This document shows, one piece after another, positions 7,281 through 50,293 of a stretch of DNA of 64,000 bases. The notes beneath the pieces were generated by a model. It saw only the letters and a list, made by a program, of their open reading frames with translations, was not told the DNA's origin and did not search any database. Every line of letters begins with the position of its first letter. Positions within the stretch are counted from its first letter, which is position 1. The DNA lies in assembly GCA_963705595.1 (NCBI GenBank), contig CAVPKD010000002.1, forward strand, positions 261,962 through 325,961, read 5' to 3'. The stretch is from Nitrospirota bacterium. GTDB taxonomy: Bacteria > Nitrospirota > UBA9217. Position numbers and translations under genes: made by a program.

Positions 7281-7341
7281 GCACGATCCTCCTTCTGATT
7301 ATCAACTCTGGACTCTGGCCACTTGGTCCCGGACCCTTAAA

Positions 7342-31810: not shown

Positions 31811-33211
31811 CACCACAACCCGGTTCCTGCCACGCTCTTTCGCTTTGTAGAGCGCGGTATCCGCACGGGAAAAAAGCCTGTCAAAGCTCGTATCGTCATC
31901 TCTTTGCATCGTCACCCCAGCGCTCAAGGTGACCGTTGCCTCCCTTACTCCGTCGCCGATGGTCTCACGATGAATGATCTTTCTGATCCTCTCCGCAACC
32001 ACGACCGTATCTTCCAGATACGATTCCGGACAGATGATGAGGAACTCCTCTCCGCCTACCCTCCCGATAAGGTCGTGCTTCCGGAGGGCCTCTTTCATCC
32101 GCGCGGATATGACCCGGAGAACGACATCGCCGAAGAGATGGCCATGAGCATCGTTGATCGTCTTGAAGTGGTCGATGTCGAGCATGATGAGACTGAGCGG
32201 CCGGCCGGTGCGCTTCGAGCGCTGGAATTCCTCTTCGAGTCGTTCCACGATGTACCGGCGGTTCCGGAGGCCCGTCAGCTCGTCGGTGATCGCCACATGC
32301 TTCAGGTGCGTCTGCGTCTCGTTCAGCCGCTTGATGAGCTTCACGAGCTCATCATCCGTTTTCTTTTCCATGATATCCCGGTGGGTCTCTACCATGGCGA
32401 GGATCTGCCCATGACCGTTCCTGACGGGAGAGGCGGTGATCTCGATCTGATGCTCGTCTCCCTGTACGTTGTAATGGGTGTGGATCACCTTGGCTACTTG
32501 CTCGCCACGCTCAAATATCAGAGAGTGGGGGCAGACTATGTGAGGACTGTCGCAGGGCGCATGCCTCCGGTGCGCAACCTCGAAGCATTTTCGGCCAATC
32601 ATATCAGACTTTTCCAGACCGAGTGAAGCGGTGGCCGCCGAGTTGGCATCAAGGATCGTGTAATCCCTGCCAATGACAATGACACCGTCCCCCATCCCCT
32701 CCATGATGTGCTCCAGGAACAGCCTTGCCTGTTCATTCTCCTGGACCGTGCTCTTGAGCTTGCTGACCAGCCGCTCGTTATAGACCTTCAAAAAGACCGG
32801 CTCATCCAGGGGGACAGGGGAGGTACCAGACGGACGGCTTTGTCCCCCTTCCGCAAGCACCTCTTTCACGGTACGTATGATTTCAGAATCCTCCGCAGGC
32901 TTGACCAGATATCTCGACACGCCGATCTTGCGTGCAAGCTCCTGGTCTTTCTTATCGAGATAACTACCGGTATAGAATACGACCGGGACATCCTTCAGGG
33001 CATCGTCTCCTCTCATCTTTCTCAGGAACTGGAATCCATCCAAGCCCGGCATGAGGACATCAGTGATCACGAGTGACGGATGCTCCGCTTTCGCTTTTTC
33101 GAGTCCATCCTCACCGTCTCCCGCCACCACAACATCGTACCCTTCGGAGACGAGGATGTTCCGAAGAATGGTGCGCATGATATCACTGTCATCAATGACG
33201 AGTATCTTCAT
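31802..33211 (-). CDS. Response-regulator receiver / PAS / GGDEF diguanylate cyclase.
   Basis: Intact 469 aa. REC (DDSDIMR...ITDVLMPGLDG), a PAS domain, and GGDEF with an intact GGEEF. Confidence 0.85.
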   Translation of the reverse strand: MKILVIDDSDIMRTILRNILVSEGYDVVVAGDGEDGLEKAKAEHPSLVITDVLMPGLDGFQFLRKMRGDDALKDVPVVFYTGSYLDKKDQELARKIGVSRYLVKPAEDSEIIRTVKEVLAEGGQSRPSGTSPVPLDEPVFLKVYNERLVSKLKSTVQENEQARLFLEHIMEGMGDGVIVIGRDYTILDANSAATASLGLEKSDMIGRKCFEVAHRRHAPCDSPHIVCPHSLIFERGEQVAKVIHTHYNVQGDEHQIEITASPVRNGHGQILAMVETHRDIMEKKTDDELVKLIKRLNETQTHLKHVAITDELTGLRNRRYIVERLEEEFQRSKRTGRPLSLIMLDIDHFKTINDAHGHLFGDVVLRVISARMKEALRKHDLIGRVGGEEFLIICPESYLEDTVVVAERIRKIIHRETIGDGVREATVTLSAGVTMQRDDDTSFDRLFSRADTALYKAKERGRNRVVVLP

Positions 33212-34377
33212 TTGACCTGGTACCGTATGAGCCTTAAGAAATGGTCGACAAGATCGGGATTAAAGGTGGTCCCCTTCCCGCTGGTCAGGACTTCAACGAT
33301 CTTCTCGATCGGGATGTCGCCCTGGTATGAACGCTTGCTGCGCATGGCATCGAACACGTCGGCGACGCTGATAAGCTGGCTTGCGATGTTCGGTCTCCAT
33401 CCGCCCTTGATCGAAGGGTATCCACTCCCGTCATATTTCAGATGATGTTCCAGAGCGGAAAGCACGGCGAGTTTGGGGATCCCCTCGATCCCCATGAGGT
33501 ACCGAGCGCCCTTCACCGTGTGGGTCTCGATGATCTTACGTTCATCCTGGGAAAGCTTGCCTGGCTTGCTCAGTATCTCTTCAGGTATAAAGATCTTTCC
33601 GACATCATGGAGCAGGGAAGCGACCCCGATCTGGTGCAGATGCTCACCAGTAAAGCCCAGTGTTTCCGCCTGGCTCATGGTCAGGATGCAAACATTCGTG
33701 ACGTGGGTAAACGTATATTCATGGGCGGACTTGAGCGATGCGAGGAGACTCAACGGGTTGATCTCCTCACGGAACGCCTGGATGAATGCCTTGACCATTT
33801 CGTCCACGCCGTGGACGTCGATCTTCTTGTGTTTCTTGATGCGGAGGTAGAGATCCTTCAGCTCATCAAGCTCTGTCTCCGTGAGCGAGAGCAGTTCCTG
33901 GATGACCTCCTGCGAAACTCCCTCGAGGGAGCCGCCCCCCTCCCCCTCTGCATGGTCATCATCTTTTTTAACCCTGAGTTCCACTTTGCCGAGTTTTATA
34001 AAAGAAGTGGAGCGGACCGATGCGGAATCGGGCGAAGCAAGGTCCTGTATAAGCACCTGAAGCTCGGTCCTCGGCAACCCAGCGACGAATGTCAATCGTT
34101 CAACCGCCTTTTTCTGCAGGATACGGGTGAAATTGCTTACATACGAAGTAGCCCCCGTTTCAGCAATCTGCCTGTTGTCCGCCACGAGGTCATTGCCAAT
34201 AAGAAAAATCGTCAGTTCCGGCTTGAGCTGAAGCATATCGGCAAGCACGGCATGCGCTTTTTCGACATATTGCGCCACCCGCGGATGGGTCGGTGAATAC
34301 AAGCTCGTGTTCGTGATCGCAGCGGTGAGCTGGGAGATCACCCGCGAGAGCCCTTCGTGGAAATCATATTCGGCCAT
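33208..34377 (-). CDS. HD-GYP c-di-GMP phosphodiesterase with an N-terminal DUF3391-like domain.
   Basis: HDVGKIFIPE...HHLKYDGSGYPS (HD and GYP motifs). The stop overlaps the GGDEF gene start. Confidence 0.85.
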   Translation of the reverse strand: MAEYDFHEGLSRVISQLTAAITNTSLYSPTHPRVAQYVEKAHAVLADMLQLKPELTIFLIGNDLVADNRQIAETGATSYVSNFTRILQKKAVERLTFVAGLPRTELQVLIQDLASPDSASVRSTSFIKLGKVELRVKKDDDHAEGEGGGSLEGVSQEVIQELLSLTETELDELKDLYLRIKKHKKIDVHGVDEMVKAFIQAFREEINPLSLLASLKSAHEYTFTHVTNVCILTMSQAETLGFTGEHLHQIGVASLLHDVGKIFIPEEILSKPGKLSQDERKIIETHTVKGARYLMGIEGIPKLAVLSALEHHLKYDGSGYPSIKGGWRPNIASQLISVADVFDAMRSKRSYQGDIPIEKIVEVLTSGKGTTFNPDLVDHFLRLIRYQVK

Positions 34378-34436
34378 ATATCGTCCTGACGGTATTCAAC
34401 CCACGCAATTTTGCACGTATGATCTTCAACCGACCG

Positions 34437-36746
34437 TCACGTCCTCTCCATCAGTTTCCTGCACGCCATCCTTATCTTTTCGCTGTTCAGACGTTCTCCG
34501 ATCTTTAGAAGATTGCCGATGCTCTCCCGCGGATATCTTCCAAGAGATTCGAAAAGAAGTTCCTTCATGCGCATTAGCCCCTGAGGATAGAGCGACCATG
34601 ACGCACGCGCTAGCTTCTCCAAGTCGGGAATTGCATGGACATCACCGATCTCGCCAAGCGCCGAGATGATCTCTTCATTTACGGTATAGTCCGATTCGAA
34701 GAGGATGACTCGTTTAAGACGGGAGAGAACATCTTCGGTAACCTCGTGTACGCGGTATTGTGCTGCCAAGGCGACGGCCTGTGAAGCGACATCTGGGTCC
34801 TTTGAATGAATCGTGTCACGCAGCAGTTTCACCGATTCGGGATCCTTGAAATGCAGGAGCGTGCCCAATGCCTCCATTCTGACCTTCAAATCCTGATGCT
34901 TGACCAACTGCTTGACATGGGGAATTGATGTCTGATTGCCCGCCCGCCGGATGAGGATGAGGAGATTTCTAACGTAGTACGGCCTCGAGTCACGCAGTCT
35001 CTTGTATGCCTCGCGCACGGCTCTGTCACCAAAGGCACAGAGCAGATTGAATACTAGCCGCCTCCCCCCCACCGATGCGTCCCTACTGAATATATCTAGG
35101 AGGCCGGGCACGGTATCTGCACCCATGGCCTGAATCAAACCTGCCGCCTCCTGCCCCTTGTCCTTCATCCATTTGTCGAACGCCTTCAAGACCTTAAGTC
35201 TGAATTCGTTGTCAGCGAATATTTTCCGCGATTCCTCGGCAAGGGTACGGATGCCCTTGACAGGTTTTTCCGTTGTATGGCGCCGGAGCGTTTCCGAGAT
35301 ATCCCAGAGGAGCTCGAAATTGCCGGTTTCGAGAAACCCGGGCATAATCGTAATAAGCTTCTGGGCAAATTCTTTATAGTCCTCCTCTTCAATATTTTCC
35401 TCCATGAAGGCAAGGAGTGCTCGGCCTATCTGGAAATCGAGGCGGGCATCCTCCAGTGACTTCTTATGATCCTCCAGGGGGAAATGGCTCCTCGCAACGG
35501 CAGTGCCGGCTGACATCTGTCTGAGCATTGCATCATAGTCTTTAGATACATAATCTTCGTACTTTTCACGGTCAAAGAGCCTCTGCATGTGTTCGGGAAG
35601 AATGATCGGCGCATGCAGGCTGTCCTCCGCCTTCTTCGATCCGTCGCTCTGCGCCCGGGCGGTCGCCGCGCTCTGTGCCTGCGACTGCGCTTTGCTCAGC
35701 TTGCCCACAAGCCCCGCTAAGGTCGGCGAGATTTCTCTCCCCTCGCTGCTCGCTTGTGCGATCATCTCGATGACCATATCGTCGGTAAAGCCACCGATGA
35801 TCTCCTCTGCGGCAGACGGCGAGCTCGACGCTATGCGCTGAACCGCGATGGACAGGAACTGTTTCCTGAGCTCGGGGTGGAGGTCCTTTAAGAGAACATT
35901 GAGGCTCGCAAGGGTCTGGGATTGTTCATGCGTAAGTTGTTTTTTCTCAGCGGCCCCGCGGATGTGCGTTGTGATGATGTGGTCATAGCTCTCCATCGCC
36001 ACATTCGCATCCAGCTTGCGTTCGTTGAGAAGGCGCGCGAGCTCCGCAGGGTCTATCTGTCCTACGTCCTTCAGGGAGACACCCTGCCCTTGAGGTCCGG
36101 CAAGCTTGCCTTCCGTGAGGTGAGACACAAAGTCCTGCCACACGCCCGCGCTCGTCTTGTCTCCGGCTCCTCCCTTACCGCCCTTCTTCTCTCCTCTTTC
36201 TGCCTTTGTCTGCTGATGAAAGATCTCCTGCTCCTCGGTAAGATGGAAACTTCCGTAGTCGATGGGTTGGATCCTGATATGCGGGATGGAAAGATTGGAC
36301 ATGACTTTTTCAATGCCACCCAAAGCCCTGATATCGTCCGGTTTGGTCGTGAGAACGCGATGGAACCGCACCATCTCGTCCTTGTCCAGACCATGGATAA
36401 AGGTGACCGCTGCTATGCCTTGCTGGTGCATGGAAAGCGCGAAGTCACGGAACACCGGGTTCTTTTGATCAAGATAGTCCTGGCCGACAAGCAGGGTGTC
36501 CTTTGCCACACCGAGCGTCATCTCCGGCCGGATCTCGAACAATCGCCGCAGGATCTCATACGCACGGTCTATGCTTCGGGTTATCTGGATATGACCGGGA
36601 GGGTAAATGCCGACATTCTTGCGTGAGATGTTGAGTTCGATGACGGCTTCCGACAGGAGCTTGGTATCGATAGGAAGCTCCCGCTCGGCAGGCGCTTGGG
36701 GCGCGATATGAGGACCTTGTTTGTCTTTGTCCTTGCCTTCTGCCAT
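34437..36746 (-). CDS. Large HEAT/ARM-repeat protein. Its N-terminal roughly 150 aa are paralogous to the N-domain of the adjacent HD-GYP protein.
   Basis: Intact about 770 aa from MAEGKDKDKQ. C-terminal HEAT-like repeats (…LLILIRRAGNQTSIPHVKQLVKHQDLKVRMEALGTLLHFKDPESVKLL…). The N-domain aligns with the HD-GYP N-domain: ISRKNVGIYPPGHIQI / ITNTSLYSPTHPRVAQ, and RPEMTLGVAKDTLLV / KPELTIFLIGNDLVA. Confidence 0.6.
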   Translation of the reverse strand: MAEGKDKDKQGPHIAPQAPAERELPIDTKLLSEAVIELNISRKNVGIYPPGHIQITRSIDRAYEILRRLFEIRPEMTLGVAKDTLLVGQDYLDQKNPVFRDFALSMHQQGIAAVTFIHGLDKDEMVRFHRVLTTKPDDIRALGGIEKVMSNLSIPHIRIQPIDYGSFHLTEEQEIFHQQTKAERGEKKGGKGGAGDKTSAGVWQDFVSHLTEGKLAGPQGQGVSLKDVGQIDPAELARLLNERKLDANVAMESYDHIITTHIRGAAEKKQLTHEQSQTLASLNVLLKDLHPELRKQFLSIAVQRIASSSPSAAEEIIGGFTDDMVIEMIAQASSEGREISPTLAGLVGKLSKAQSQAQSAATARAQSDGSKKAEDSLHAPIILPEHMQRLFDREKYEDYVSKDYDAMLRQMSAGTAVARSHFPLEDHKKSLEDARLDFQIGRALLAFMEENIEEEDYKEFAQKLITIMPGFLETGNFELLWDISETLRRHTTEKPVKGIRTLAEESRKIFADNEFRLKVLKAFDKWMKDKGQEAAGLIQAMGADTVPGLLDIFSRDASVGGRRLVFNLLCAFGDRAVREAYKRLRDSRPYYVRNLLILIRRAGNQTSIPHVKQLVKHQDLKVRMEALGTLLHFKDPESVKLLRDTIHSKDPDVASQAVALAAQYRVHEVTEDVLSRLKRVILFESDYTVNEEIISALGEIGDVHAIPDLEKLARASWSLYPQGLMRMKELLFESLGRYPRESIGNLLKIGERLNSEKIRMACRKLMERT

Positions 36747-36900
36747 AATCGTATTATATACAATTTTCTTGAATTTTCCACGATAATAGTGCAGATAAAA
36801 TCTATTAATAAACCGGATTTCGTTAAAGATAATACGGTTCTTCCGGTAGCAAATTAAGGCACCGTTCACCGGGTACGTTCCATGGTTGATGTCCGGAATA

Positions 36901-36953
36901 TGCTATAATTAAGCAGAAATAAGACATCAACAGGCACCGCGCAATTATATTGC
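36901..36953 (+). promoter_or_regulatory. Candidate hyd promoter (extended -10 TGcTATAAT at 36901..36909) with a 15-bp inverted repeat CGCAAT-tat-ATTGCG (36939..36953) in the leader.
   Basis: Read directly. TGnTATAAT sits 60 nt upstream of the hydB ATG. The perfect 6-3-6 palindrome lies between it and the RBS. Confidence 0.35.
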
Positions 36954-36969
36954 GAGATGATACATCACT

Positions 36970-38015
36970 ATGATCTTCAGGGTGTTCGACAAAGAGGAAC
37001 TAAAGAAATTTTTCGACACGCTGGCGGCCAATAATACGGTCGTCGGGCCCGTTGAAACAGGAATCGACAGGAACGGTAGACCTCTGTATGCCTTTGAACA
37101 GGTCTCTGATTTTCAGAAGATCAGGTTACACTATACCACGACCAAGCTGCCTGCAAAGCGGTATTTCCTCCCTTTCAGGGAAACCCTGGCCTCATTCCGA
37201 ATAGACGATGGCGACTGGCACAAGACCGTGGACTTCAACATTGACCGTCCTTATGTCTTCTTCGGACTCCACGCGTGCGACATCAACGCCCTGAATAAGC
37301 TCGACAAGGTCCTCATGGGCAACATTTATCCCATGCCTTACTATGCCGCCAAGCGTAAAAACATGTTCATCATCGGTATCGATTGTCTGCCCCAGCCGTT
37401 CTGCTTCTGCCGCTCCATGGGTTCTGATACGGCGCTTCACGGATTCGATCTGTTCATTACCGACATCGGCGACAGGTATTTCATCGAAATCCTTTCAGCG
37501 ACAGCATACAATCTTCTCCAGACCGTCACAACCCGCGCTCCAGAAGAAGACGACCACCTGCGTTACATGAAGGTCGTGGCAGAAAAGAACAAGAAGTTCA
37601 CCGCGCACGTGGATACGACGGACCTCACCAAGATCCTGGACATGGAATTCCAGTCGCCCCGGTCTGGAAACAGTGGGGCGATAAGTGCCTGGGCTGCGGA
37701 ACGTGCGCCAATGTCTGCCCCACCTGCTACTGCTACGGCGTTGAGGAGACGGTGGACCTCGATCTTCGGGGAGCGCGAAAAATCAAAACCCTCTACTCCT
37801 GCAACGTCGTGGATTTTGCCGAGGTGGCTGGCGGCCACAATTTCAGGCCCGAACGGCATATCCGCCTCAAATACCGCTACTACCACAAGCATCGTGGATT
37901 TGTCGAAGCGTACGAGGAATCGCTCTGCGTCGGGTGCGGCCGCTGCGGTGAGGCCTGTCTTGCCGGGATCACTGTCCCCGAGGTGATCGCAAACGTCCGA
38001 GGAGAGGAGGCCTGA
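36970..38015 (+). CDS. hydB: Sulfhydrogenase (group 3b NiFe-hydrogenase) beta subunit, 4Fe-4S. One indel near 37660.
   Basis: ORF 36970.. carries the HydB N-terminal region. After the frameshift, [25 protein letters not shown]...[11 protein letters not shown] (ORF 37752..38015). Confidence 0.8.
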
Positions 38016-38016
38016 T

Positions 38017-38927
38017 CTGGATACACAGCTGAAATTCATAGACGTCCTGCGGCAACGCCACGGGAGGCACTTCAGGCAACAGGACCTCGGCAAATTTGAA
38101 TACTCGTACAAGGCCGAGATCACCAGCATAGTACGGCTCACAAAAATGGAAAGCCTCTACCGGATCCGGATCATCGATCATGAGGAACGAAAACATTTCT
38201 CCTTCCAGCCAGGCCAGTTCGTCATGCTTGAGGTTCCCGGGCATCGGTGAGGCCCCCTTCTCTATCGCTTCCTCCCCAAGCAGCCGCGATGACATCGAAC
38301 TCTGCATCAGGAAGGTCGGGAACCTCACCTCGTTCCTGGCAAGAGCGACCCGCGGAATGCGCGTCGGTATCCGCGGACCCTTCGGGACCAGCTTCCCCAT
38401 GGAGACCATGCACGGCCAGAACATCCTTCTGATCGCGGGAGGACTAGGACTGGCGCCCTTGCGGTCTCCGATCGCCTATGTGCAGGAGAACCGGAGCACG
38501 TTCCATAATGTGGACATCATCTACGGAGCAAAGTCGGCCTCTCAGCTTCTCTTTACGTTCCAGTACGACATGTGGCGAAGGGACGATATCGGCTTGAGCA
38601 TCATCGTAGAAAGGTCCGATCCTTCATGGAAAGGACCGGTGGGAATGATAACCGACGTCCTCGACCCCCTGCTCTCCGAGCGAGGAGAGTCTTTTGCCAG
38701 GAATACCTTTGCAATCGTGTGCGGCCCGCCGGTCATGTTCAAGTTCATCTGCAACCATGCTGACCGAGATCGGCATTCCCATGCAGAAGATGTTCGTCTC
38801 CCTAGAGCGCCGCATGCACTGCGGCATGGGCAAGTGCTGCCGCTGCAACGTAGGCTCGACTTATACCTGCCTCTCGGGGCCCGTATTCGACTACTGGACC
38901 GTGATGAACCTGAAAGAGGCAATCTGA
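38017..38927 (+). CDS. hydG: Sulfhydrogenase gamma subunit (FAD/NAD(P)-binding, 2Fe-2S). Indels near 38240 and 38760. The start codon is unclear.
   Basis: …[27 protein letters not shown]…[27 protein letters not shown]…[14 protein letters not shown]…GIRGPFG…[15 protein letters not shown]… and C-terminal …[17 protein letters not shown]. Confidence 0.75.
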
Positions 38928-39742
38928 TGGATGACAAGCATACAGAGACCCGGACCTATCTCGGCGTGCCACTTGCCCGTCCGAGCGTCGCGTTCTTTGA
39001 GCTCTCGTCGTGCGAAGGCTGCCAGCTTCAGATCGTGAACAACGAGTCCACGCTCATGGACTTCCTCTCCCTTGTCAACGTGGTGAACTTCCGGGAGGCC
39101 ATGACCGAAAAGACCGATCACTATGACATCGCCTTCGTGGAAGGGAGCGTTACCCGCGCCGACGAGATCGAGCGGCTCAGATCGATCCGGCAGAACGCCA
39201 ATGTCCTCGTGGCCTTCGGCTCCTGCGCGTGTTTTGGCGGCGTGAACCAGCTGAAGAACCGCTTCAAGGATCCCGACTGGGTACGAAGGCAGGTCTACGG
39301 GAACCACCCGATCGATACCAATGAGACCGCCAGGCCGCTCGAGGATTTTGTCAAAGTCGATCTCAGGATCTACGGTTGTCCGGTGAAAAAGGAGGAGGTC
39401 GAGAAGATCGTCACTCATATCGCTGTCGGGAGAACCATCGTACAGCCGAAGTACCCTGTCTGCATGGAATGCAAGGCGAACGAAAATATCTGCCTCTTCG
39501 ATGTCGGAGAGCCCTGCCTGGGGCCGGTCACCCGCGGAGGTTGTGATTCCTGGTGCCCGAACAACCGGTTCGGCTGTTGGGGCTGCCGGGGGCCGGCCGA
39601 TGACGCCAATGTAGGTCAGATGCAGACCATCATGAAAGAGCATGGTTTTTCCGAAGAGACCATACTTGACCGGTTTGAATGTTTCGGCGGGTTCGCGACA
39701 TACGCGGAAGAACTGCGGAAGAACCTCGAAGCAAAAGAATAA
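38927..39742 (+). CDS. hydD: Sulfhydrogenase delta (small) subunit.
   Basis: Intact 271 aa. FELSSCEGCQLQIVN…GSCACFGG…GCP… (NuoB/HycG-like small-subunit Cys ligands). Confidence 0.85.
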   Translation: MDDKHTETRTYLGVPLARPSVAFFELSSCEGCQLQIVNNESTLMDFLSLVNVVNFREAMTEKTDHYDIAFVEGSVTRADEIERLRSIRQNANVLVAFGSCACFGGVNQLKNRFKDPDWVRRQVYGNHPIDTNETARPLEDFVKVDLRIYGCPVKKEEVEKIVTHIAVGRTIVQPKYPVCMECKANENICLFDVGEPCLGPVTRGGCDSWCPNNRFGCWGCRGPADDANVGQMQTIMKEHGFSEETILDRFECFGGFATYAEELRKNLEAKE

Positions 39743-41130: not shown

Positions 41131-41517
41131 TCGGAGCTCGGTGAATTACGGCTATGGTTCTTCGGACCATTTGCGGTTCAATCGGAGGATCAACAGGAGC
41201 AGGAGGAAGATAAGCGGTATCCACACGAAGGGATTGTATGGCTGACTCTCTCCGGTCATGGCAGTTACGCACCGGGACACAGTAACCGTTTGCTCGGTCT
41301 CAGGAGCTTCACTCGTGCTAGGTATCGCCGTTCATGCCGGCACACTAGCAAGCGCTTGTGGTTTATGCTGCTTCGTTTTCCTGGCGATCCAGATCGGCTC
41401 CCCGTCCTTGTCGTGGAGATGATACTCATTATACTAAAGATCCCATTCTTCACACCGTTTCAAATATTTGTGTCCTCCACATCCGTCTGTCTTTCCCGTG
41501 TCAGAAAAGACGGTCGC

Positions 41518-41943
41518 GGGGCAAATCAGAATAACAAGAATGACAGGCAGTTTTTTGATGCGGCGCGTGCATCGCACTGCAGATATACTATCAATCCGAT
41601 GGATGCTCATCAACAGCCCGTCTTTTTTCTTGACAACACCGGTTCGTGATGTTACATTATTTTTCGACTCACAATATATTATATAGGTTGTGCATTGCGG
41701 GGCTGTAGCTCAGCTGGGAGAGCACAAGGCGGGGCAAATCAGAATAACAAGAATGACAGGCAGTTTTTTGATGCGGCGCGTGCATCGCACTGCAGATATA
41801 CTATCAATCCGATGGATGCTCATCAACAGCCCGTCTTTTTTCTTGACAACACCGGTTCGTGATGTTACATTATTTTTCGACTCACAATATATTATATAGG
41901 TTGTGCATTGCGGGGCTGTAGCTCAGCTGGGAGAGCACAAGGC
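41518..41943 (+). repeat. Perfect tandem direct repeat, 2 x 213 bp. Each unit is the tRNA-Ala upstream/promoter region (about 181 bp) plus tRNA positions 1-32. The second unit is part of the functional tRNA.
   Basis: Unit A 41518..41730 and unit B 41731..41943 are identical by eye. The called ORFs 41468..41686 and 41690..41899 give identical peptides from the two units. Confidence 0.85.
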
Positions 41944-41987
41944 TGGCAGTCTTGGGGTCAGGGGTTCGATCCCCCTCAGCTCCACCA
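41912..41987 (+). tRNA. tRNA-Ala (anticodon GGC).
   Basis: GGGGCTGTAGCTCAGCTGGGAGAGCACAAGGCTGGCAGTCTTGGGGTCAGGGGTTCGATCCCCCTCAGCTCCACCA. It has a 7-bp acceptor stem with G3:U70, D-loop AGCTGGGA, anticodon loop CTGGCAG, T-loop TTCGATC and an encoded CCA. Confidence 0.9.
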
Positions 41988-41996: not shown

Positions 41997-42031
41997 GGGG
42001 TTAGCTTAAAACAGCTAACCCTTCTTCATTT
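41997..42031 (+). terminator. Intrinsic terminator of tRNA-Ala (GGGGTTAGC-ttaaaaca-GCTAACCC + U-rich tract).
   Basis: A perfect 8-9-bp GC stem followed by ttcttcattt. Homologous hairpins follow repeat copies 2 and 3. Confidence 0.6.
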
Positions 42032-42310
42032 GAATGTGCTAAATTTGTGCTAATTCTGTCCAAGACCTCCACACCACTCCGCAAACTGTCAGGGCAATGA
42101 TGCGAATACCACGGCGTCATTTCGAGCGCAGAGATAAACCCTAGCTGAGATTCCTCGCTAATTACTACACAGGCGTTTCCAGTTGATCGCTGATCGACGA
42201 CAGCCGTCTGCCACTATGCCCGTTCTCTGTTGACAGTCATGAACCTTTCGGATACACTTTTGCCAGACAGTTCAGACACTGTGCCTCGCACATGCCATGG
42301 AGGATGCACC

Positions 42311-42508
42311 ATGAACGGGAAAATCATCGGTATCGTTATACTCGCTGCGGGAATCGTATTGCTAATCTTGGGATTCAATGAAATTGGGACATTCGGCTCC
42401 CGTGCGGGCAGGATGCTCGGTGCGGGCGTATCGAATAAGGTTCTGTTCTACTTCAGTGCAGGGGCCATATGCACAATCTTCGGCTTCATACAGATGCGGA
42501 AAAAATAA
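42311..42508 (+). CDS. Small two-TM membrane protein (DUF3185-like).
   Basis: MNGKIIGIVILAAGIVLLILGFNEIGTFGSRAGRMLGAGVSNKVLFYFSAGAICTIFGFIQMRKK. Confidence 0.4.
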   Translation: MNGKIIGIVILAAGIVLLILGFNEIGTFGSRAGRMLGAGVSNKVLFYFSAGAICTIFGFIQMRKK

Positions 42509-42876
42509 CCCTTGCCTCAGATGCGAACATTTATCGATGATGACTGTCAAGAATTGTAAAGTAGACAGTCATTAACAAACAGCTAGAGGGATTACATCCC
42601 CTCCTCTAGGCAATTCATACCGAACAAAGTCAACCGGTTATGATTGAAATAACTCTTTAATAAAACGGAGCTGCCGAGCGATAAGTACGACTTTAGGAAA
42701 TAGCTAAGATAGAAATGGATGGACTATTAGGTTTTGTATTGTGCAGTTCGTGTGTCAGTAGAGATCGGGAAAGGACGATAAAGGACGGAATCCCCTTCCC
42801 TGCAATAATCCGATAACCTCAAGATAAAGCAAGAAAAGGAAGAGGCGGGGAATGTATGCGGGGTAATCGGTTGCAT

Positions 42877-42921
42877 CTGGCAGTCTTGGGGTCAGGGGTT
42901 CGATCCCCCTCAGCTCCACCA
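42877..42921 (+). repeat. tRNA-Ala 3'-half copy 2 (positions 32-76, 45/45 identical). An att-type direct repeat.
   Basis: ctggcagtcttggggtcaggggttcgatccccctcagctccacca. Confidence 0.85.
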
Positions 42922-42931
42922 AGAATTCAAA

Positions 42932-42962
42932 GGGTTAGTCTAAATGACTAGCCCTTTTTTGT
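42932..42962 (+). terminator. Terminator hairpin homologous to the tRNA-Ala terminator (GGGTTAGTC-taaat-GACTAGCCC + T6).
   Basis: Read directly. It carries stem substitutions relative to 41997..42031. Confidence 0.5.
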
Positions 42963-43052
42963 TGGAATGTGATAAGGGTGTGATAATTCTATCCAGGATC
43001 TCGACATCCATCCGCAAATTGTCAGGACCATGATGCGAATACCGTATATATT

Positions 43053-43292
43053 TTATTTCGCGAAATTGATTTTCTTTGACAGAATGTTCAACCTTGAAGA
43101 TAAACTCGATTGTTTCCTTCTTTCCGGTCCTAAATATGAACCGACTGATCCCCTTATCGGATCTCTCTCAATATCTGCCCACTCTCCAGAACGATAAAAC
43201 TTTTTAATTTTCTTTGACGAAATGAGTTCATTGAGGAGCGATGGTCTAACCATATCATACTTATCGTTCTGATACATGACCTTGAGCAGCAT
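43053..43292 (-). CDS. Hypothetical small protein (79 aa) in island 2.
   Basis: ORF MLLKVMYQNDKYDMVRPSLLNELISSKKIKKFYRSGEWADIERDPIRG…. The composition is protein-like, but I recognise no family. Low support. Confidence 0.25.
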   Translation of the reverse strand: MLLKVMYQNDKYDMVRPSLLNELISSKKIKKFYRSGEWADIERDPIRGSVGSYLGPERRKQSSLSSRLNILSKKINFAK

Positions 43293-44010
43293 GGTCTGCC
43301 CTCCCTGACTTAGGATGGGAAAGAACCCATGTAACCGTTTTCGACTGTGAACCTCGAGATCAATATAATCTTACCCACACTTATTGCTGGCCTTTCATCT
43401 GAAGGGACGCTATGCCTGCCTTTTGAGAGAGAACCTTCGTATCTTCCGCATAATATGCGATAGTTTTATTAGGAATCTTCTTGAGGCATTTCTGTCCCCG
43501 AAGTAAGGTGAGTACTCGCATAATGTTCAGGTTTTTTTCTCTGGAAAAGCACTTAGGATACATATCACCTTCCATAATTTTTTTTCTCCGGCAGCCCAGC
43601 CGTCCCGTGTCTGGAACCCGTGAGCTTTGTGCCCCACATTGCGATGGTTTACTCTTTTCGGCGGATCAAGCGTGTCTATAACGACGATATATTTATATGT
43701 ATAACTAAATAGACACAAAAAAACTGATGCCGATTTTTAGATCAGAAAAAACCGGGTCAGATTTTGTTGGAAATAAGCGGTGGCAGTAAGCAGGCTGTTA
43801 ATACTTACATGTAAAATAGCAAATAATAGGTGCAAAGTAAAGTTCAATTTCGGGGTATTTTTAGGGTATTGTTGCAAAAAATCGAAATTATTTAAAAGGG
43901 CAAAACTCATAATAGACAAATTCAATATAGTACGGTCAATATTATGATGCAACGCGCAAAACGGGAAGCCAGACAGAATATCAAGGATTGTGTTTTTCTG
44001 CACTATCGAG

Positions 44011-44054
44011 CTGGCAGCCTTAGGGTCAGGGTTCGATTCCCATTAGCTCCACCA
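44011..44054 (+). repeat. tRNA-Ala 3'-half copy 3, degenerate (about 37/45 identical).
   Basis: ctggcagccttagggtcagggttcgattcccattagctccacca. Confidence 0.75.
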
Positions 44055-44424
44055 AGAATTCAAGAGGTCAGTTTACAAAGCTAACCCTTTTTCATTTGAC
44101 TGTGCTATATCTGTGATGTTTCTTTCCGAAACCTCTTTCCATTTCGCAAATATTCAGCGGTATTTTCATCCCCCCTGTACATTACCAGGGGGCCATTTTG
44201 CCCCACTAATACCGGCTTTTTTAAATTATCGGATATGTTTCAGTTAGCAATTATTAACAAGAATCGCATATTTCCACCTTGTTTAGTGCCGATAAAAATA
44301 GTATCATAATCATCCAATAATCTTGTATGAGACAGAGTAAAGAAAGAAACATTAAGCCGGGGGAAAGATAAGAACTCTGAAGGTAAACGGGGAAATAATC
44401 AAAAGCGGAAGGGATCCTGCGATC

Positions 44425-44886
44425 ATGAAAGGTACAACATATCTATTTCTTGGACTTCTAGCGGCTACTTTAGGAGCTGCCCAGCCAGTTCATGCTACGC
44501 TCGGTGAATCTGCCGATTCAGTCATGACGGATCGTAAGGCGCTCTCAGCGGTGCAAGCCGTTACAACGACACGTAATGCCTACACGGTTCAGGAGATCTC
44601 GTCTGATTCGGTTGCTGTTCGGGAGTACATGTCGCCATCCGGGATGGTATTCGGCATCGCATGGAATGGCCTGACCCACCCAGATCTTACACTGCTTCTA
44701 GGATCTTATGCCGGCGAATACCAGAAATCCGTGAAACAGACTCCTCGCAAGCCGGGCCGCAGGTTCTCTCAAATAAAGACGAACCGAATCGTGGTGGAGA
44801 AATGGGGGCATATGCGAAACCTGCGCGGTCGCGCCTACGTACCATCCTTAATCCCACCCGGAGTGACTGTCGATGAAATCAAGTAA
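44425..44886 (+). CDS. Secreted DUF2844-like protein.
   Basis: Signal peptide MKGTTYLFLGLLAATLGAAQPVHA. The body …YTVQEISSDSVAVREYMSPSGMVFGIAWNGLTHPDL… resembles the small proteins that pair with DUF3443 lipoproteins in Burkholderiales. This is from memory and unverified. Confidence 0.45.
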   Translation: MKGTTYLFLGLLAATLGAAQPVHATLGESADSVMTDRKALSAVQAVTTTRNAYTVQEISSDSVAVREYMSPSGMVFGIAWNGLTHPDLTLLLGSYAGEYQKSVKQTPRKPGRRFSQIKTNRIVVEKWGHMRNLRGRAYVPSLIPPGVTVDEIK

Positions 44887-46087
44887 AATACCAATTCTTT
44901 TCCTGATCCTTGTTCTGGTAGCCGGTTGTGGCGGCGGTGGATCAGGCACACCCCCGCCGAAAGGCAGTGCCGCTCTTGCCAACAACGTGCTTCCCATCAC
45001 CGTGAATGGATCGCTCTGTTCGGCCAGCACCTCAGCTTCCTACCTCAATAAGCCCTGCGTCAGCGTTACGGTCTGCACTCCCGGCACGTCAACCTGCCAG
45101 ACGATCAACGACATCCTCTTGGATACGGGAAGCTTCGGGCTGCGGATATTCAAGCAGGCGCTGACGACTGTTTCCCTGACACAGATAATCAGCGGTTCCG
45201 GATCAGTTGCCGAGTGCGCGCAGTTCAATGGTGGCTTATCGGAATGGGGTCCTGTTGTGTTAGCGGACGTTACCCTAGGCAAAGAAACCGTCAATAATGT
45301 TCCTATCCAGATCATAGATTCCACCTTCGGCACTGTCCCCAGCGCCTGCGGAACCCCGGATGCAACGCCGTCAGCCGCGGGCTTTACCGGGATACTGGGG
45401 GTCGGCGTCTTTGTCCAGGATTGCGGTTCAGTCTGCGCAAACCAAGCAAACAATGGAATCTATTACTCCTGCAGCGGATCGACATGCACGGGCATAACAG
45501 TTCCCCTATCCAGTCAGGTCCAGAATCCGGTGGTGTTCCTTCCTCCGGATAATAACGGCGTGAGTGATAATAACGGTGTGATCGTGGAGCTTCCGACCGT
45601 TCCTTCGAATGGTTCGCAATCAGTTAATGGAATTCTTGTGCTCGGGATCAGTACAAAGACCAACAATGTACCTTCCGGAGTCACCGCATATAACACAGAC
45701 CCAATCGGTGAGATCACCACAAGTCTCAGTGGTACCTACAGTGGGATTATTGATAGCGGATCGAACGGGCTGTTTTTCACACCTCCCTCACCAGGCCTTC
45801 TCCCGAATTGCCCGTCTCCTGATTCTGCATGGTTCTGCCCCTTGTCGATAACGACCCTTTCCGCGAAAAACCAAGGGGCATCGGGATCGCCGAGCGGCGA
45901 CGTTTTCTTCCAGATAGGCAACTTCATGAGCCTAACAAAGTCACCTAACAACGTCTTCTCCAACATTGGCGGGTCATCACCGGGCCTATTCGATTGGGGA
46001 CTTCCGTTTTACTTTGGACGAAACATCTGTGTGGGAATTGAAGGAAAGGCGTCCAGCATCGGCACCGGACCTTACTTTGCCTATTAA
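44873..46087 (+). CDS. Lipoprotein with a pepsin-like (bilobal aspartic protease, DUF3443-like) fold.
   Basis: Lipobox LVLVAGCGGG. Two aspartic-protease-like motifs at a pepsin-like spacing: INDILLDTGSFGLRIF (compare FDTGSSNLWV) and GIIDSGSNGLFF (compare VDTGTSLL). The start overlaps the preceding gene. Confidence 0.5.
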   Translation: MKSSKIPILFLILVLVAGCGGGGSGTPPPKGSAALANNVLPITVNGSLCSASTSASYLNKPCVSVTVCTPGTSTCQTINDILLDTGSFGLRIFKQALTTVSLTQIISGSGSVAECAQFNGGLSEWGPVVLADVTLGKETVNNVPIQIIDSTFGTVPSACGTPDATPSAAGFTGILGVGVFVQDCGSVCANQANNGIYYSCSGSTCTGITVPLSSQVQNPVVFLPPDNNGVSDNNGVIVELPTVPSNGSQSVNGILVLGISTKTNNVPSGVTAYNTDPIGEITTSLSGTYSGIIDSGSNGLFFTPPSPGLLPNCPSPDSAWFCPLSITTLSAKNQGASGSPSGDVFFQIGNFMSLTKSPNNVFSNIGGSSPGLFDWGLPFYFGRNICVGIEGKASSIGTGPYFAY

Positions 46088-46329
46088 AGGTGAGATGAAG
46101 TTCTGTGTTTAAACATTGTTGCTTCCTGAACTTGTCATGGCTGACACTCCTTGAAACTGCTAAAGATTCACTCAGAATTCGTTGGCGCCTATTCGGCCGA
46201 AATACTGTTAATGGTGCGGCATGTTCATTGCTGATCCTAGACCTCGCCTCATAGATATAACTCTGGCCGGCATGTTGTGCTTCACCAGGAGAGTTCAGCC
46301 CGGCCGCTGAAACGTTCGCTAGAGATAGA

Positions 46330-46842
46330 ATGAAATTTTCATACAGCATAATTCGCTTGGTCATTTTAGCGCTCATCCTGGTCCTGCCAGGCTGCACATT
46401 CACGAAACTGCTGACAACCCGGTTAGTGAAGCCAACCTTCACCTATAAGGGCTTCGAGCTGGTCGATGCCTCGCAAAGCAGCTTAATCGTGAACTTTCTG
46501 TTCTCCGCGCATAACCCGAATAAAGCAGGATTGAAGAACATAACCTGCTCGTATGAGCTTTTTGTGGAAGGAAATAAAATTCTGACAGGAAATGACGTTC
46601 CTTTGGCGCTTAACCCGAACGGCGACACGGAGATCAAGGTTCCTGCAACGATCGCTTATTCGGACCTCTTCCCCGTTCTGGGGTCTGTCGTACAACGGAT
46701 TTTATCAGGTCAGAAAACAATACCTATCACTATAAATGCCGTCTTTTCCGGTAAACCTGCGACCTATAGCGAAGCAGGAAAAGAAGAAGCGATTTCCTTC
46801 GAGATGAAATTGATCAAGACCGCCGACATTCCCTTACCGTAA
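46330..46842 (+). CDS. LEA14-like / WHy-domain lipoprotein.
   Basis: Lipobox LVLPGCTF. Then KPTFTYKGFELVD…SLIVNFLFSAHNPNKAGLKNITCSYELFVEGNKILTG…, typical of LEA_2/WHy. Confidence 0.5.
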   Translation: MKFSYSIIRLVILALILVLPGCTFTKLLTTRLVKPTFTYKGFELVDASQSSLIVNFLFSAHNPNKAGLKNITCSYELFVEGNKILTGNDVPLALNPNGDTEIKVPATIAYSDLFPVLGSVVQRILSGQKTIPITINAVFSGKPATYSEAGKEEAISFEMKLIKTADIPLP

Positions 46843-47162
46843 GGGAAAATAATCAAAGGACAGTGAAGGAATTCGATTGTATTTTGTAGCGGCATATACC
46901 TGAACTCTGCACTGACAACAATACGGTCCCATGTGCATTTTTGAACTAGTATTATTTAATGAAACATCCTTGCAACAAAAATACTATTGATTGTAGTAGT
47001 CCGGTTGGATCAATTCCGAAGGAGCGATGCCTAGTGAAAGCAGCGAGATAGCTGCTAAGACGGAGAGTAAATTATGCCGTCTTCCTTTGAACTCACAGCT
47101 TATGCTTGGCTAAAGTACATATTGCAATTGGATAACTTTGCGTATATGAAATTCAATCTAAA

Positions 47163-47996
47163 ATGATGACCAAAACGGGATGGTTCATTATTGCTTTTGT
47201 GTCCATAATATTATTTCACCTGAGTCTATCGCAAGCAGAAGAACCCGATCTGTCCACGGTTCAGACGCAAAAGGAAGACAACGATATAAACAAAAAACCT
47301 CCGGACCGCGTGGTTAAGCTAGACAAGGAGTATTTTACCGGATAGTGGACGGACACAAAGAACATTCTTACTTCCCCAGCTCGACGGGAGACAAAGGATT
47401 GGATAAAAGCATCTGCCATCTTTGGTATATCAATAGGGTTGTATACACAGGATGGTAAAATTCAGACGTGGGTACAGAAAAATAAGAATAACACCAATTC
47501 TCATCTTGCTGATGATGCCTCAACTACATTACGTTATGCGATACCGGTCCTGGGAGGACTTGGCCTATACGGCTACATCGCCGAAGACGAAAGAGCCAAA
47601 AGAACCTTCTTGCTGAGTGCCGAGAGCGTCATCATTACCGGCGTTTTTGTTCAAACTCTTAAACACTCAACAGGCCGTCATCGGCCTAATACTGGTGATC
47701 ATTATGATACATGGTCCGGCCCCACCATGAAAGGCTCATATCTGTCGTTCCCTTCTGGTGATGCCTCGACAGCCTTTGCCATAGCATCCGTTGTAGCTTC
47801 TGAATATGATAATATTGTGGTACCTACCCTGGCATACACAGCCGCATCGCTCATAGCTCTTGAACGAGTATACAACAACGCGCATTGGTCTTCCGATGTT
47901 TTTGTGGGTTCCGCGATAGGATATTTTACCGGAAAAGCGATCGTAGCTTCGCATAGGAACGTTTGCGAGAGCAACACCTATCGGTTGTTCCTCTGA
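47163..47996 (+). pseudogene. PAP2-family phosphatase paralogue with an in-frame TAG at 47343..47345 and substituted catalytic motifs (PSGD instead of PSGH).
   Basis: ORFs 47163..47345 (signal peptide) and 47439..47996 are in the same frame. The latter has KHSTGRHRP, SFPSGDAS and ERVYNNAHWSSDV (the KxxxxxxRP / PSGH / SRxxxxxHxxxD pattern with H to D and S to E). Confidence 0.5.
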
Positions 47997-48440
47997 TAGA
48001 CGCAAAGGGCGTTGGGTTACTAGTGACTTATAGGTATTAATCATCCGGTCCTTCGCATAATTCCCGCCCGCCTTCCCGCACTGGTGCTCGTGGTCACCTG
48101 GCTGAGGTTCATGTGCAGAATTCAACTAATATCCGTTAGAGTTTCAATTCGTCGTAACCCATATACTTGTGGGTGTTCACGAGAGGGATCAGGATTTGAG
48201 TGAAGAGATGAAGATCGATTGAATCATTCAGTATCTGATCCTTCCCGTGCCTCACGAAGTTTCCATTCTTAGCAACTCATCAATTTTCAACCCGGATTTA
48301 TTAGCATATACCCTTAAAATACCCATTGGAAAATATTGACAAGTCATAATATCTGTGCTTGTATCTAAGTAGTTCTCGATAAAGCCAAACCCTTCGCAAG
48401 AGGGGGACGGAAAGCGACGGGTCTTAAGAGACAAAGATGG

Positions 48441-48490
48441 CCGAGCTGCCGAGGGATGATTCCTTTGGTTAGCTCGGCCTTTTGTTTTGT
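48441..48490 (+). terminator. Strong hairpin (GGCCGAGCT…AGCTCGGCC, 9-bp perfect stem) followed by TTTTGTTTTG. An orphan intrinsic terminator in an island 3 intergenic region.
   Basis: Read directly. No annotated plus-strand gene ends within 440 nt upstream. Confidence 0.45.
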
Positions 48491-48770
48491 ATCATAATTT
48501 CCGTGATTAATCTTGTTCATCATCCGACAAAACCAAACGTCTTGTGAGAACGGGCGGGAAACGGTTAGTCCTTGAAGATCAAGGTCGTCGCGGGGTGTTT
48601 CGAATAACCTAGCCACAATCGGAATATAACATATGATGGCACAAAAGCGCACATAGGTTTCGCTATTCAGCAGAAGTTGTAATTGAATGTCATTAAGCAG
48701 ATGTCGAATTTAATTAACGTGGACATGTCCACATCAAGAACTTGGAAATATCAAGGCGCAGAGAGGACGA

Positions 48771-49346
48771 ATGTTTTTGAATCGATTGAGGCTACGTATG
48801 GAATCATCTACAGAAAACATAACAATTAAAATCCCGGTCGAAGTGGGACAGATCAGTTCCGCGGGAATAGAGAGGACGAAGAATCTCGTACGGGCAGCTC
48901 TAATCGCGGCCGTGGCGCTCGCTTCCGTTTACGCCTCCAAAGTGCCCGATGCGGCGGCAGGTTCATTCTCCACGGTCATCCGGGTGAACGCCGTTGTCCT
49001 GGCACGAACGCAACTGAAGCCCCTTCGACAGCCGGCGATGCTTGTCATAACGGAGACCGACATTCAGCGGGGTTACGTTGAAGTCAGCGGCGCCTCGATC
49101 TTCGAGATCTGGAGCAACGATCCGGCCGGATGTGTTCTCACCTTCGAGTCAAGCGATTTTCCCTACCGCGAAGCGGCTGTCAGAGTGATGGGCAGAGAAA
49201 TTATTATATATCCGACGGGCGGCATGATCCTTATGCCGGTCAGAGGAAGACAGCAGATCGCTCTGGACTACCGGTTTATCCTTACTACCGAAGCACAGCC
49301 CGGCACCTACGCATGGCCCCTCTCCGTTTCTGTTAATCCGCGGTGA
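48771..49346 (+). CDS. Hypothetical membrane-anchored periplasmic protein (191 aa).
   Basis: RBS gagagga 4 nt upstream. TM/signal anchor LVRAALIAAVALASVYA. No recognisable family. Confidence 0.35.
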   Translation: MFLNRLRLRMESSTENITIKIPVEVGQISSAGIERTKNLVRAALIAAVALASVYASKVPDAAAGSFSTVIRVNAVVLARTQLKPLRQPAMLVITETDIQRGYVEVSGASIFEIWSNDPAGCVLTFESSDFPYREAAVRVMGREIIIYPTGGMILMPVRGRQQIALDYRFILTTEAQPGTYAWPLSVSVNPR

Positions 49347-49788
49347 AGGGAGCGGGGATGGTGGAGCAGATGGTCGCGATGCCGACTGTGACTGACACTG
49401 TTCATACAGAACGAATCCCCAGGCAAGGACAAGGAAGCCAAGTGGCTCCCTACGCTGAAGGAACAATTCTTCATGGCTATGCTTCTCTACATGCCGAAAG
49501 CCAAAGTACTGGAAGGCAAGAAGCGCACCGCCGCTGAACCGCGACGTTCATGTGTACGTTTCAACTGGCATTTTGTATCTCCTCTCTATCGGTCCCCGTT
49601 TCGACCTTGTTGATGTACTTAACAGATTGGCTTAGAAACACCGTGCCATATTTATACTAAAAAATATCCGTAAGTGCAAAATCATAGTAATAAACAAACT
49701 CATCGCCATGCGGCCACCCTTTGATCCGGCCATTAAAAAAGGGAGACTAGGCAACAAACCAAGGATTGTTGTTTTCTGCCCTGCCCTA

Positions 49789-49822
49789 CTGGTTGTCTTG
49801 GGGTCAGGGGTTCGATTCCCAC
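49789..49822 (+). repeat. tRNA-Ala 3'-half copy 4, partial (positions about 32-63, lacking the acceptor 3' strand).
   Basis: ctggttgtcttggggtcaggggttcgattccc, then diverges. Confidence 0.65.
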
Positions 49823-50092
49823 GAGTGAACATGTGCTGCGCGGGACGCGTCCTGGTGACGCCGGGACCCGGATTTCGCGCGCTGCTGTTGACACATGCAT
49901 CCTTGACCTATATCATGGCTGAGCAACTCTTTGTTCATCGTAAGATCAATCTTGGCCATGACAAACTGTAATAAAAAGGTGTGGCGGAGGTCAATAACTG
50001 CTCGTCATTGTATTGAATAATGGAGCCGTGCTGGATTCAAATCGATCATGCCAAAAGGGTTGGCATATCGGATGCACCGCACATTACCACGC

Positions 50093-50293
50093 TTATACAT
50101 TTCTTTTTATGCGTTTACCTCCCCTCGGACTGGATTTTAAAACAAACTCCCTCTCCTCAACCGCTCTAATTAAAACAACTGGCTTGCCATTCTTTGTCAC
50201 GGTGACATCCTCTCTCTTTTTATTAATTTCGGCGACAATTGCTGTCGCATGCGCACGAAGCTCTGAAACTGTTATAAATCTCAAAGCACTCAC
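50093..50293 (-). CDS. Phd/YefM-family antitoxin-like protein (orphan).
   Basis: MSALRFITVSELRAHATAIVAEINKKREDVTVTKNGKPVVLIRAVEE…, the YefM N-terminal pattern. I translated the downstream minus-strand region and found no toxin-sized ORF. Confidence 0.45.
   Translation of the reverse strand: MSALRFITVSELRAHATAIVAEINKKREDVTVTKNGKPVVLIRAVEEREFVLKSSPRGGKRIKRNV

Follow-up and report, generated by a model that had tools for sequence, protein, structure and literature searches.

The window, a stretch of 64,000 nucleotides (nt) from a Nitrospirota bacterium (contig CAVPKD010000002.1), encodes a large HEAT-repeat protein followed by an HD-GYP enzyme, a member of a class of phosphodiesterases acting on c-di-GMP, the cyclic dimeric form of guanosine monophosphate. 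Both proteins begin with a copy of the same N-terminal domain (N-domain), and what is conserved as a unit is the HEAT gene with the HD-GYP gene behind it. The pair may represent a conserved two-gene signalling unit in which the shared domain couples the phosphodiesterase to a HEAT scaffold, a reading to which we give a probability of about 45%.

Comparison of the full-length HEAT and HD-GYP proteins by BLASTP returned a single significant segment, joining residues 31-125 of the former to residues 10-106 of the latter (43.5 bits, expectation value (E) 1e-8, 20% identity over 103 amino acids (aa)). With family alignments built separately for each N-terminus, hhalign gave a probability of 97.9% (E 6e-13). 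When the families were made more diverse (52 HEAT-type proteins, 31 HD-GYP partners) and trimmed to the regions of interest, the two N-domains aligned over 108 columns with a probability of 99.4% (E 5e-22). Control pairs, in which the HEAT middle region or solenoid was set against the C-terminal part of the HD-GYP enzyme, the middle region against the HD-GYP N-domain, or the HEAT N-domain against the HD-GYP C-terminal part, all stayed at or below 2.2%. A single HEAT N-domain sequence also matched HD-GYP partners on other contigs, with scores of 22-48 bits. Sequence comparison thus confirms the two N-domains as true paralogues. A preliminary description of the locus, made from the DNA sequence alone, had proposed that the N-termini could be aligned, and BLASTP (E 1e-8) and the profile comparison with its clean controls agree. 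It had drawn the alignment over about 150 aa; the N-terminal similarity stands, but the homologous core takes up about 110 aa of a globular domain some 140 aa long. The motifs it listed, Y-[PS]-P-x-H, [RK]-P-E-[ML]-T-[LI] and TF[IV]xGL, do fall in aligned columns, but the prefix 'I-[ST]-x5' is out of register.

Several columns are invariant in both paralogues, among them Tyr and His in a Y-x-x-x-H loop, the P-E-x-T threonine, one Phe, the T-F pair and the Glu after G-L. Y27 and H31 of the HD-GYP enzyme are equivalent to Y48 and H52 of the HEAT protein, and the latter are two of the only three columns invariant among 52 diverse HEAT-type members. The loop reads 'LYSKELP', with the His replaced, in the N-domain of one HD-GYP partner from a distant clade (L092, 8163-9248), so the enzyme-side copy has no absolute need of this His. 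The idea that homology continues past the N-domain, the HEAT middle region being a degenerate HD-GYP domain, was also considered and rejected: in a greedy hhalign run the alignment grew to 299 columns and seemed to reach into the catalytic domain, and this is regarded as an artefact because the region-cut controls scored 2.2% or less.

The shared domain has no annotation in the databases searched. No Pfam model matched it in the two window proteins (E up to 1), in 52 HEAT-type relatives (E up to 0.1) or in 10 HD-GYP partners (E up to 10), and no NCBIfam model for it was found. An AlphaFold2 model built from a combined alignment of both paralogues was of high confidence (predicted local distance difference test score (pLDDT) 94, predicted template modelling score 0.87) and predicts the element order a1, Y-P-x-x-H-P loop, a2, b1, b2, a3, b3, a4, a5, a6, b4. 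A Foldseek search of the PDB with this model found nothing below E 0.2, and a profile search of PDB sequences nothing below E 0.5. The top Foldseek entries, which are not significant (E at least 0.2, template modelling (TM) score about 0.2), are GAF-like sensor folds (PelD, NifA, Nlh2, phytochromes and IclR-type domains).

The enzyme of the window resembles the Bd1817 family of DUF3391-HD-GYP proteins (PDB 3TM8; also PA4108 and VC2497), which are likewise cytoplasmic and about 380-410 aa long, with an N-domain of about 120 aa of unknown function and a helical linker to the catalytic domain. The N-domain had accordingly been labelled 'DUF3391-like', and identity with DUF3391 (PF11871) was rejected on three grounds: there was no Pfam match, 3TM8 was absent from the best 50 Foldseek entries, and the order of elements differs, since DUF3391 in 3TM8 is strand-first, with four to five beta-strands and then two long helices (Galperin and Chou preprint), whereas the window domain is predicted to be helix-first, with a two-helix hairpin and then beta-alpha units. 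In a census of HD-GYP proteins the most common architectures carry 'undefined N-terminal domains' (Galperin and Chou, 2021 preprint), and the shared domain is best described as an unannotated family, one of these.

When 1.84 billion cluster representatives (clusters at 50% identity) were searched with a joint profile of the two paralogues, 4181 proteins matched at E up to 1e-3, and 1405 of them reached E 1e-10 or lower. Among the best 150 of the 4181, 141 were sorted by their remaining regions. A HEAT-type body followed the domain in 124 (about 690-790 aa when full-length) and an HD-GYP body in 7 (about 390-400 aa); the other 10 were mostly short fragments with no detectable C-terminal region. 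These proteins are named 'hypothetical' or 'HEAT repeat domain-containing' in the database and come from Nitrospirota, Thermodesulfobacteriota and 'Deltaproteobacteria' metagenome-assembled genomes (MAGs). In a neighbour-joining tree of the N-domains of 22 paired loci, the HEAT-type and the HD-GYP-type copies formed two clean clades with largely matching subclades. The two copies of one locus are 18-29% identical, and the HEAT-type copies have a mean identity of 53% among themselves. Such a tree indicates a single old duplication of the N-domain followed by co-inheritance, and not a recent copy onto a scaffold. The domain had been thought to be found normally only in front of HD-GYP and to have been copied secondarily; this view is not upheld, as the duplication appears ancient and the HEAT-type form is by far the commoner among the best 150 matches (124 against 7).

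Conservation of the gene pair was examined in 94 sequences, comprising the window and 93 loci (11 from genomes, 80 from metagenomes and 2 from a clade about 30% identical to the query); metagenomes were scanned for HEAT-type loci with the pattern IELNI[SA]R[RK][NS] (14-sequence alignment subset). Two open reading frames (ORFs) with the N-domain, one HEAT-type and a second, were found in 77 of the 94. The second ORF carries an HD-GYP domain in 71 of the 77 and is cut by the contig end before that domain in the other 6, and in the remaining 17 sequences the contig stops with the HEAT gene or shortly beyond it. Wherever more than about 300 nt follow the HEAT gene, an N-domain HD-GYP gene lies directly downstream on the same strand, except in one locus (L070), the sole deviation in gene order, in which the two genes are divergent. 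The pair is kept where the HEAT proteins are only 31-37% identical (L077-L079, L088, L089 and L091), in L092 and L093, from the clade that shares about 30% identity with the query, and in a Thermodesulfobacteriota contig (L094) and a 'Deltaproteobacteria' contig (L096), both with overlapping stop and start codons. Flanking genes vary between clades and the pair stays. Lookups seeded with the HD-GYP protein found a 717-aa HEAT_2 gene directly upstream in one case (P0122) and a 205-aa ORF at the contig edge, without Pfam data, in another (P0176).

The 'Deltaproteobacteria bacterium' MAG contig (L096) carries two tandem HEAT/HD-GYP pairs at 1609-8332, with HEAT proteins 42% identical and HD-GYP proteins 56% identical to each other. 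The presence of paralogous pairs within one genome implies pair-specific recognition. Just upstream of the tandem pairs lie genes for a 7TMR-HDED HD protein and a PhoH-like protein. The tie between HEAT protein and phosphodiesterase, suggested earlier from the window alone, is thus seen as adjacent, co-directional genes in the informative related loci, in distant clades and in a second phylum-level group. At the level of gene order this fits a role of the HEAT protein as partner, scaffold or decoy.

The HD-GYP enzyme matched the Pfam models HD_5 (PF13487; 75.9 bits, cut-off 27.2, E 4e-21) and HD (PF01966; 46.3 bits, cut-off 22, E 6e-12) at residues 222-375. Its best solved relative is PmGH, a GAF-HD-GYP protein of Persephonella marina (4MCW, E 1e-26). 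The catalytic residues aligned to PmGH are H225, H257-D258, K261, KPG at 271, H286, H311-H312, GYP at 319-321 and D340. Metal ligands, KPG and GYP are invariant in the 31 non-redundant partner enzymes; E220 is also invariant and lies one position from E185 of PmGH, a third-metal ligand. Because the metal ligands are invariant the enzyme is probably active. The motif with the consensus HHExh(D/N)GxGYP reads EHHLKYDGSGYP, so that the Glu of HHE is Leu in the window enzyme and L, Q, M or R across the subfamily, and RxxK reads RSYQ in the window enzyme. PmGH provides the nearest solved catalytic domain, with the aligned metal His and Asp residues, KPG and GYP in common, but it has an N-terminal GAF domain, and the window N-domain is not recognisable as GAF, with only non-significant Foldseek hints in that direction. 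The enzyme is an HD-GYP member outside the DUF3391/Bd1817 family and, on present evidence, probably outside the GAF/PmGH family.

An AlphaFold2 model of the full-length HEAT protein (mean pLDDT 82) predicts three parts, the N-domain (pLDDT above 93), a helical middle region and a C-terminal solenoid, with low-confidence or disordered segments at 168-221 and 364-421 flanking the middle region. The N-domain is the most conserved, with a mean pairwise identity of 38% within the HEAT family, compared with 25-27% for the middle and HEAT regions. Conserved columns of the middle region are L289, P291, F297 and L298 among 52 members; it had no Pfam match and no similarity to the HD-GYP protein. HEAT_2 and HEAT_PBS fall in the C-terminal third, HEAT_2 with 58.1 bits (cut-off 27.7) in the window protein, and HEAT_2 is present in 52 of 52 family members. 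The earlier assignment as a HEAT-repeat protein of about 770 aa was therefore correct, the protein having 769 aa, HEAT_2 above its cut-off and a predicted paired-helix solenoid. Foldseek matched the solenoid to SF3B1, the A subunit of PP2A, karyopherins and alphaRep (E 1e-6 to 1e-4), and alphaRep matches it by sequence too. A phycobilisome lyase of the NblB or CpcE/F type was considered and rejected, the NCBIfam model of NblB scoring 22 bits against a cut-off of 300. Pfam searches of the HEAT protein and 51 family members found no PilZ, GGDEF or other known c-di-GMP-binding domain, and no I-site-like motif was seen by eye in the HEAT protein sequence.

The third gene of the window locus encodes a REC-PAS-GGDEF diguanylate cyclase (Pfam GGDEF 159.9 bits, E 6e-47; Response_reg 86.2 bits, E 2e-24; PAS_4 E 9e-13). 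The acidic pocket of REC is intact, with DD at 7-8 and D51 within 'ITDVLMPG'. The GGEEF motif of the A-site (residues 386-390) is intact, as first described, but the accompanying statement that there is no obvious RxxD I-site is mistaken: R377-K-H-D380 stands at the canonical five-residue spacing before GGEEF, in the stretch RKHDLIGRVGGEEF at 377-390. REC, GGEEF and an RxxD five residues upstream are features in common with PleD/WspR-type REC-GGDEF proteins; the window cyclase differs in a PAS domain with a Cys/His-rich insert between REC and GGDEF, and its gene occurs in a subset of loci. In 13 of 49 scorable loci, all of them from closer relatives of the window, the pair is followed by a REC-PAS-GGDEF gene, and in 16 others the convergent gene for a 481-aa protein directly abuts the HD-GYP gene. 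The cyclase is therefore an accessory gained or lost within this lineage. A cyclase/phosphodiesterase pair under REC control, as originally envisaged, may thus apply to the lineage of the window but does not describe the module in general.

The Cys/His-rich stretch of the PAS domain (residues about 209-229; window 32500-32600, minus strand) reads C-F-E-V-A-H-R-R-H-A-P-C-D-S-P-H-I-V-C-P-H and suggests a metal or redox cofactor site that would give the cyclase a sensory input. A hybrid sensor kinase of 734 aa (PAS-PAS-HisKA-HATPase_c-REC) is encoded at 50481-52685 on the minus strand, in a low-GC (guanine plus cytosine) region. It is the sole kinase among the Pfam-scanned ORFs and a candidate phosphodonor for the cyclase REC domain. 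A reading of the three proteins as anti-phage defence was rejected, PADLOC giving marginal generic matches only (HEAT-ARM 16.7 bits, Cas10 HD 19.5 bits, and REC-like regions).

Our proposed mechanism starts from an apparently competent c-di-GMP phosphodiesterase with an N-terminal regulatory domain, and from a HEAT protein that would be non-enzymatic and consist of the duplicated N-domain copy, flexible linkers with the helical middle, and a solenoid of 340 aa. The two paralogous N-domains would pair with each other through the interface that otherwise dimerises the enzyme, an ancestral dimer interface, and this pairing would tether or gate the phosphodiesterase on the HEAT scaffold. If the solenoid binds a further target as a third component, c-di-GMP hydrolysis would become local or conditional. 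In the lineage of the window, a phosphorylation-controlled, product-inhibited cyclase encoded directly after the phosphodiesterase would make this a make-and-break operon. The data show the N-domain homology, a strict gene pairing, an old duplication, intact catalytic residues and a predicted architecture; from these we infer the physical interaction, the direction of regulation and the ligand. A broader version, held more tentatively, is that the shared domain, which in its 4181 clusters has no Pfam coverage, is a new and widespread heterodimerisation and regulatory module which builds a HEAT plus HD-GYP phosphodiesterase holoenzyme with a PP2A-like layout, so that hydrolysis of c-di-GMP would be spatially restricted to the targets of the solenoid.

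Several points weigh against coupling. The HEAT and HD-GYP genes of the window are 59 nt apart, from the HEAT stop to the HD-GYP gene, and do not overlap. Full activity of the enzyme is not certain, because HHE has become HH[LQMR] and RxxK has become RxxQ. The residues conserved in both paralogues could line a ligand pocket common to the two just as well as a common interface, and other domain architectures may exist among the 4181 matches, of which the best 150 were inspected, and could point to a generic sensor role. In an alternative reading the N-domain binds a small molecule or a metal and the proteins do not touch, each reading the same signal, with c-di-GMP hydrolysis as the output of the HD-GYP enzyme and protein binding as that of the HEAT protein; the genes would be co-transcribed as serving one response. 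In both paralogues the a1-a2 loop has an invariant Tyr and His, as a ligand or metal site would be expected to have, GAF-like sensor folds are over-represented among the non-significant Foldseek entries, and HD-GYP N-terminal domains are generally regarded as sensors (Galperin and Chou preprint). Those fold matches are, however, far from significant, the partner in L092 is without the His, and genes that sit strictly one beside one, often with stop and start codons overlapping, and that have been duplicated together are more typical of physically interacting subunits. We consider two parallel sensors unlikely, though the likeliest of the rivals.

HD-GYP enzymes are thought to work as dimers. 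The HEAT N-domain might then act as a decoy that competes with homodimerisation of the phosphodiesterase, giving an inactive heterodimer; as an anti-phosphodiesterase, the HEAT protein would be released when its solenoid binds a target. The pairing evidence speaks for this as much as for coupling, of which it is a sub-case differing only in the sign of regulation, and a precedent exists in HnoD, an inactive HD-GYP protein that inhibits another phosphodiesterase by protein contacts (Galperin and Chou preprint). For inhibition, however, the N-domain alone would suffice, yet about 600 further residues, including a conserved middle region and the solenoid, are kept in 52 of 52 aligned members; because they are maintained, a scaffold or adaptor is favoured over pure titration, which we regard as distinctly improbable. 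Still more doubtful is a role of the HEAT protein as the output of the pathway, a receptor of c-di-GMP or of the linear dinucleotide pGpG whose N-domains bind the nucleotide allosterically. Enzymes and effectors of c-di-GMP are sometimes co-encoded, and a c-di-GMP-I-GGC riboswitch at 48375-48454 of the window shows active use of the messenger family, but neither a known c-di-GMP-binding domain (Pfam, 52 members), nor an I-site-like motif, nor a fold match to known receptors was found. Chance similarity between incidental neighbours without a functional link could appeal to the pairwise identity of just about 20%; against a profile-profile E of 5e-22 with clean controls, and adjacency across about 100 loci, down to about 30% identity, across phylum-level groups and in changing contexts, we count it as refuted.

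Coupling of the enzyme to a scaffold through a shared domain has parallels in other systems. Chemotaxis protein CheW and the P5 domain of CheA, and the STAS domains of RsbR and RsbS, are cases in which co-encoded proteins assemble through a duplicated domain; the logic is the same as that proposed for the window pair, but the folds are unrelated, and assembly of the window pair is a proposal. To our knowledge, no paralogous partner protein has been described for the DUF3391 enzymes. PP2A, whose holoenzyme joins a HEAT scaffold to a metal-dependent phosphoesterase and whose A subunit the solenoid matches significantly in Foldseek, is an analogy and not a homologue: it is eukaryotic, has another catalytic fold and no domain common to scaffold and enzyme, and the likeness lies in the generic solenoid fold only. 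RpfG and HnoD exert HD-GYP output through protein contacts in the c-di-GMP network (Galperin and Chou preprint), as proposed here; they have REC inputs and partners that are not paralogous to the input domain, whereas the window enzyme keeps its catalytic ligands and its HEAT partner shares the input domain. A literature search, within the library available to it, found no paper linking HD-GYP with a HEAT partner or treating such a pairing in Nitrospirae. What is new is that an enzyme of a known class has a new input domain and a paralogous partner of its own; the components are individually familiar.

The three genes run head to tail on the minus strand (Table 1), HEAT, then HD-GYP, then cyclase. 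The co-directional, tightly packed order first described is confirmed by the ORFs, and so is the overlap of the HD-GYP stop with the next start, the ATG of the cyclase sharing ATGA with it. The HEAT frame is open up to a GTG at 36869, and homologues begin at the ATG of 'MAEGKDK'. The AT-rich intergenic region upstream is likely, judging from its sequence, to be the promoter region of the operon; in it, TGGAAA-16-TATAAT (36780-36753, minus strand) resembles a sigma-70 promoter, as a consensus match only. Downstream, the module is bordered by a convergent pair, a LolA-like gene and the gene of the 481-aa protein, for which there was no Pfam match.

Table 1. Positions of the genes, domains and intergenic region of the HEAT/HD-GYP locus within the window.
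Feature	Position	Strand	Basis or remark
HEAT-type partner gene, 769 aa	34437..36746	-	ORF; ATG 36746 supported by homologue N-termini
HEAT N-domain, residues 27-165	36252..36668	-	Model pLDDT 94; core homologous to HD-GYP is 29-136
Helical middle region, residues 225-365	35652..36074	-	AlphaFold2 pLDDT 60-87; conserved L-x-P-E-L-K-x-Q-F-L-S
C-terminal HEAT/ARM solenoid, residues 430-769	34440..35459	-	pLDDT mostly >95; Pfam HEAT_2, HEAT_PBS
HD-GYP phosphodiesterase gene, 389 aa	33208..34377	-	ORF and Pfam HD_5/HD
HD-GYP N-domain, residues 6-140	33958..34362	-	BLASTP, hhalign; paralogous to HEAT N-domain
HD-GYP catalytic domain, residues 216-389	33211..33732	-	Alignment to 4MCW
REC-PAS-GGDEF diguanylate cyclase gene, 469 aa	31802..33211	-	ORF and Pfam
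AT-rich divergent intergenic region, HEAT gene / hydrogenase-associated gene	36747..36969	.	Sequence

Divergent from the HEAT gene lies a [NiFe]-hydrogenase-associated cluster (36970-39742, plus strand) with frame problems. Its first ORF (36970-37986, 338 aa, no Pfam match) has homologues that align over about 230 aa only, and it overlaps an ORF in another frame (37752-38015) with Fer4_22; a further ORF (38180-39742) joins NAD_binding_1 and Oxidored_q6 through an odd-looking segment. These irregularities could reflect frameshifts, whether introduced in assembly or due to pseudogenisation, or fusions that are real.

Beyond this cluster, a transfer RNA (tRNA) gene is found at 41912-41984, preceded by ORFs at 41468-41686 and 41690-41899 that contain an identical peptide of about 55 aa and therefore a direct DNA repeat of about 170 bp. 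The translation of an ORF at 42755-42922 (minus strand) reads 'GIEPLT' and resembles a tRNA remnant, and between 42 and 54 kb several blocks have a GC content of 0.43-0.45, down from about 0.55. The stretch from about 42000 to 54000 could be a genomic island integrated at the tRNA. Its low-GC region holds an adjoining pair of genes for DUF2844 (153 aa) and DUF3443 (404 aa) proteins at 44425-46087 (plus strand), both with strong Pfam matches. The riboswitch mentioned above (RF03167, plus strand) is full-length and scores 74.6 bits against an Rfam gathering score of 59 (E 7.6e-16). It lies 317 nt upstream of a 191-aa ORF (48771-49346) with no Pfam match and, by eye, a hydrophobic N-terminal segment, and is the second c-di-GMP-related element of the window, about 11.6 kb from the HEAT gene.

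HD-GYP proteins are the less understood class of c-di-GMP phosphodiesterases, and one of their 'undefined' N-terminal domains is now defined; the same domain stands at the start of a large HEAT-protein family whose only annotation is 'hypothetical' or 'HEAT repeat'. In Nitrospirota and in Thermodesulfobacteriota/'Deltaproteobacteria' MAGs, the two are passed on as an obligate pair. The hosts are uncultured anaerobes, and work on the pair needs heterologous systems. If the two proteins do form a physical complex, they would offer a testable case of local c-di-GMP signalling from a scaffold and a catalytic subunit, and thousands of unannotated proteins would gain a function.

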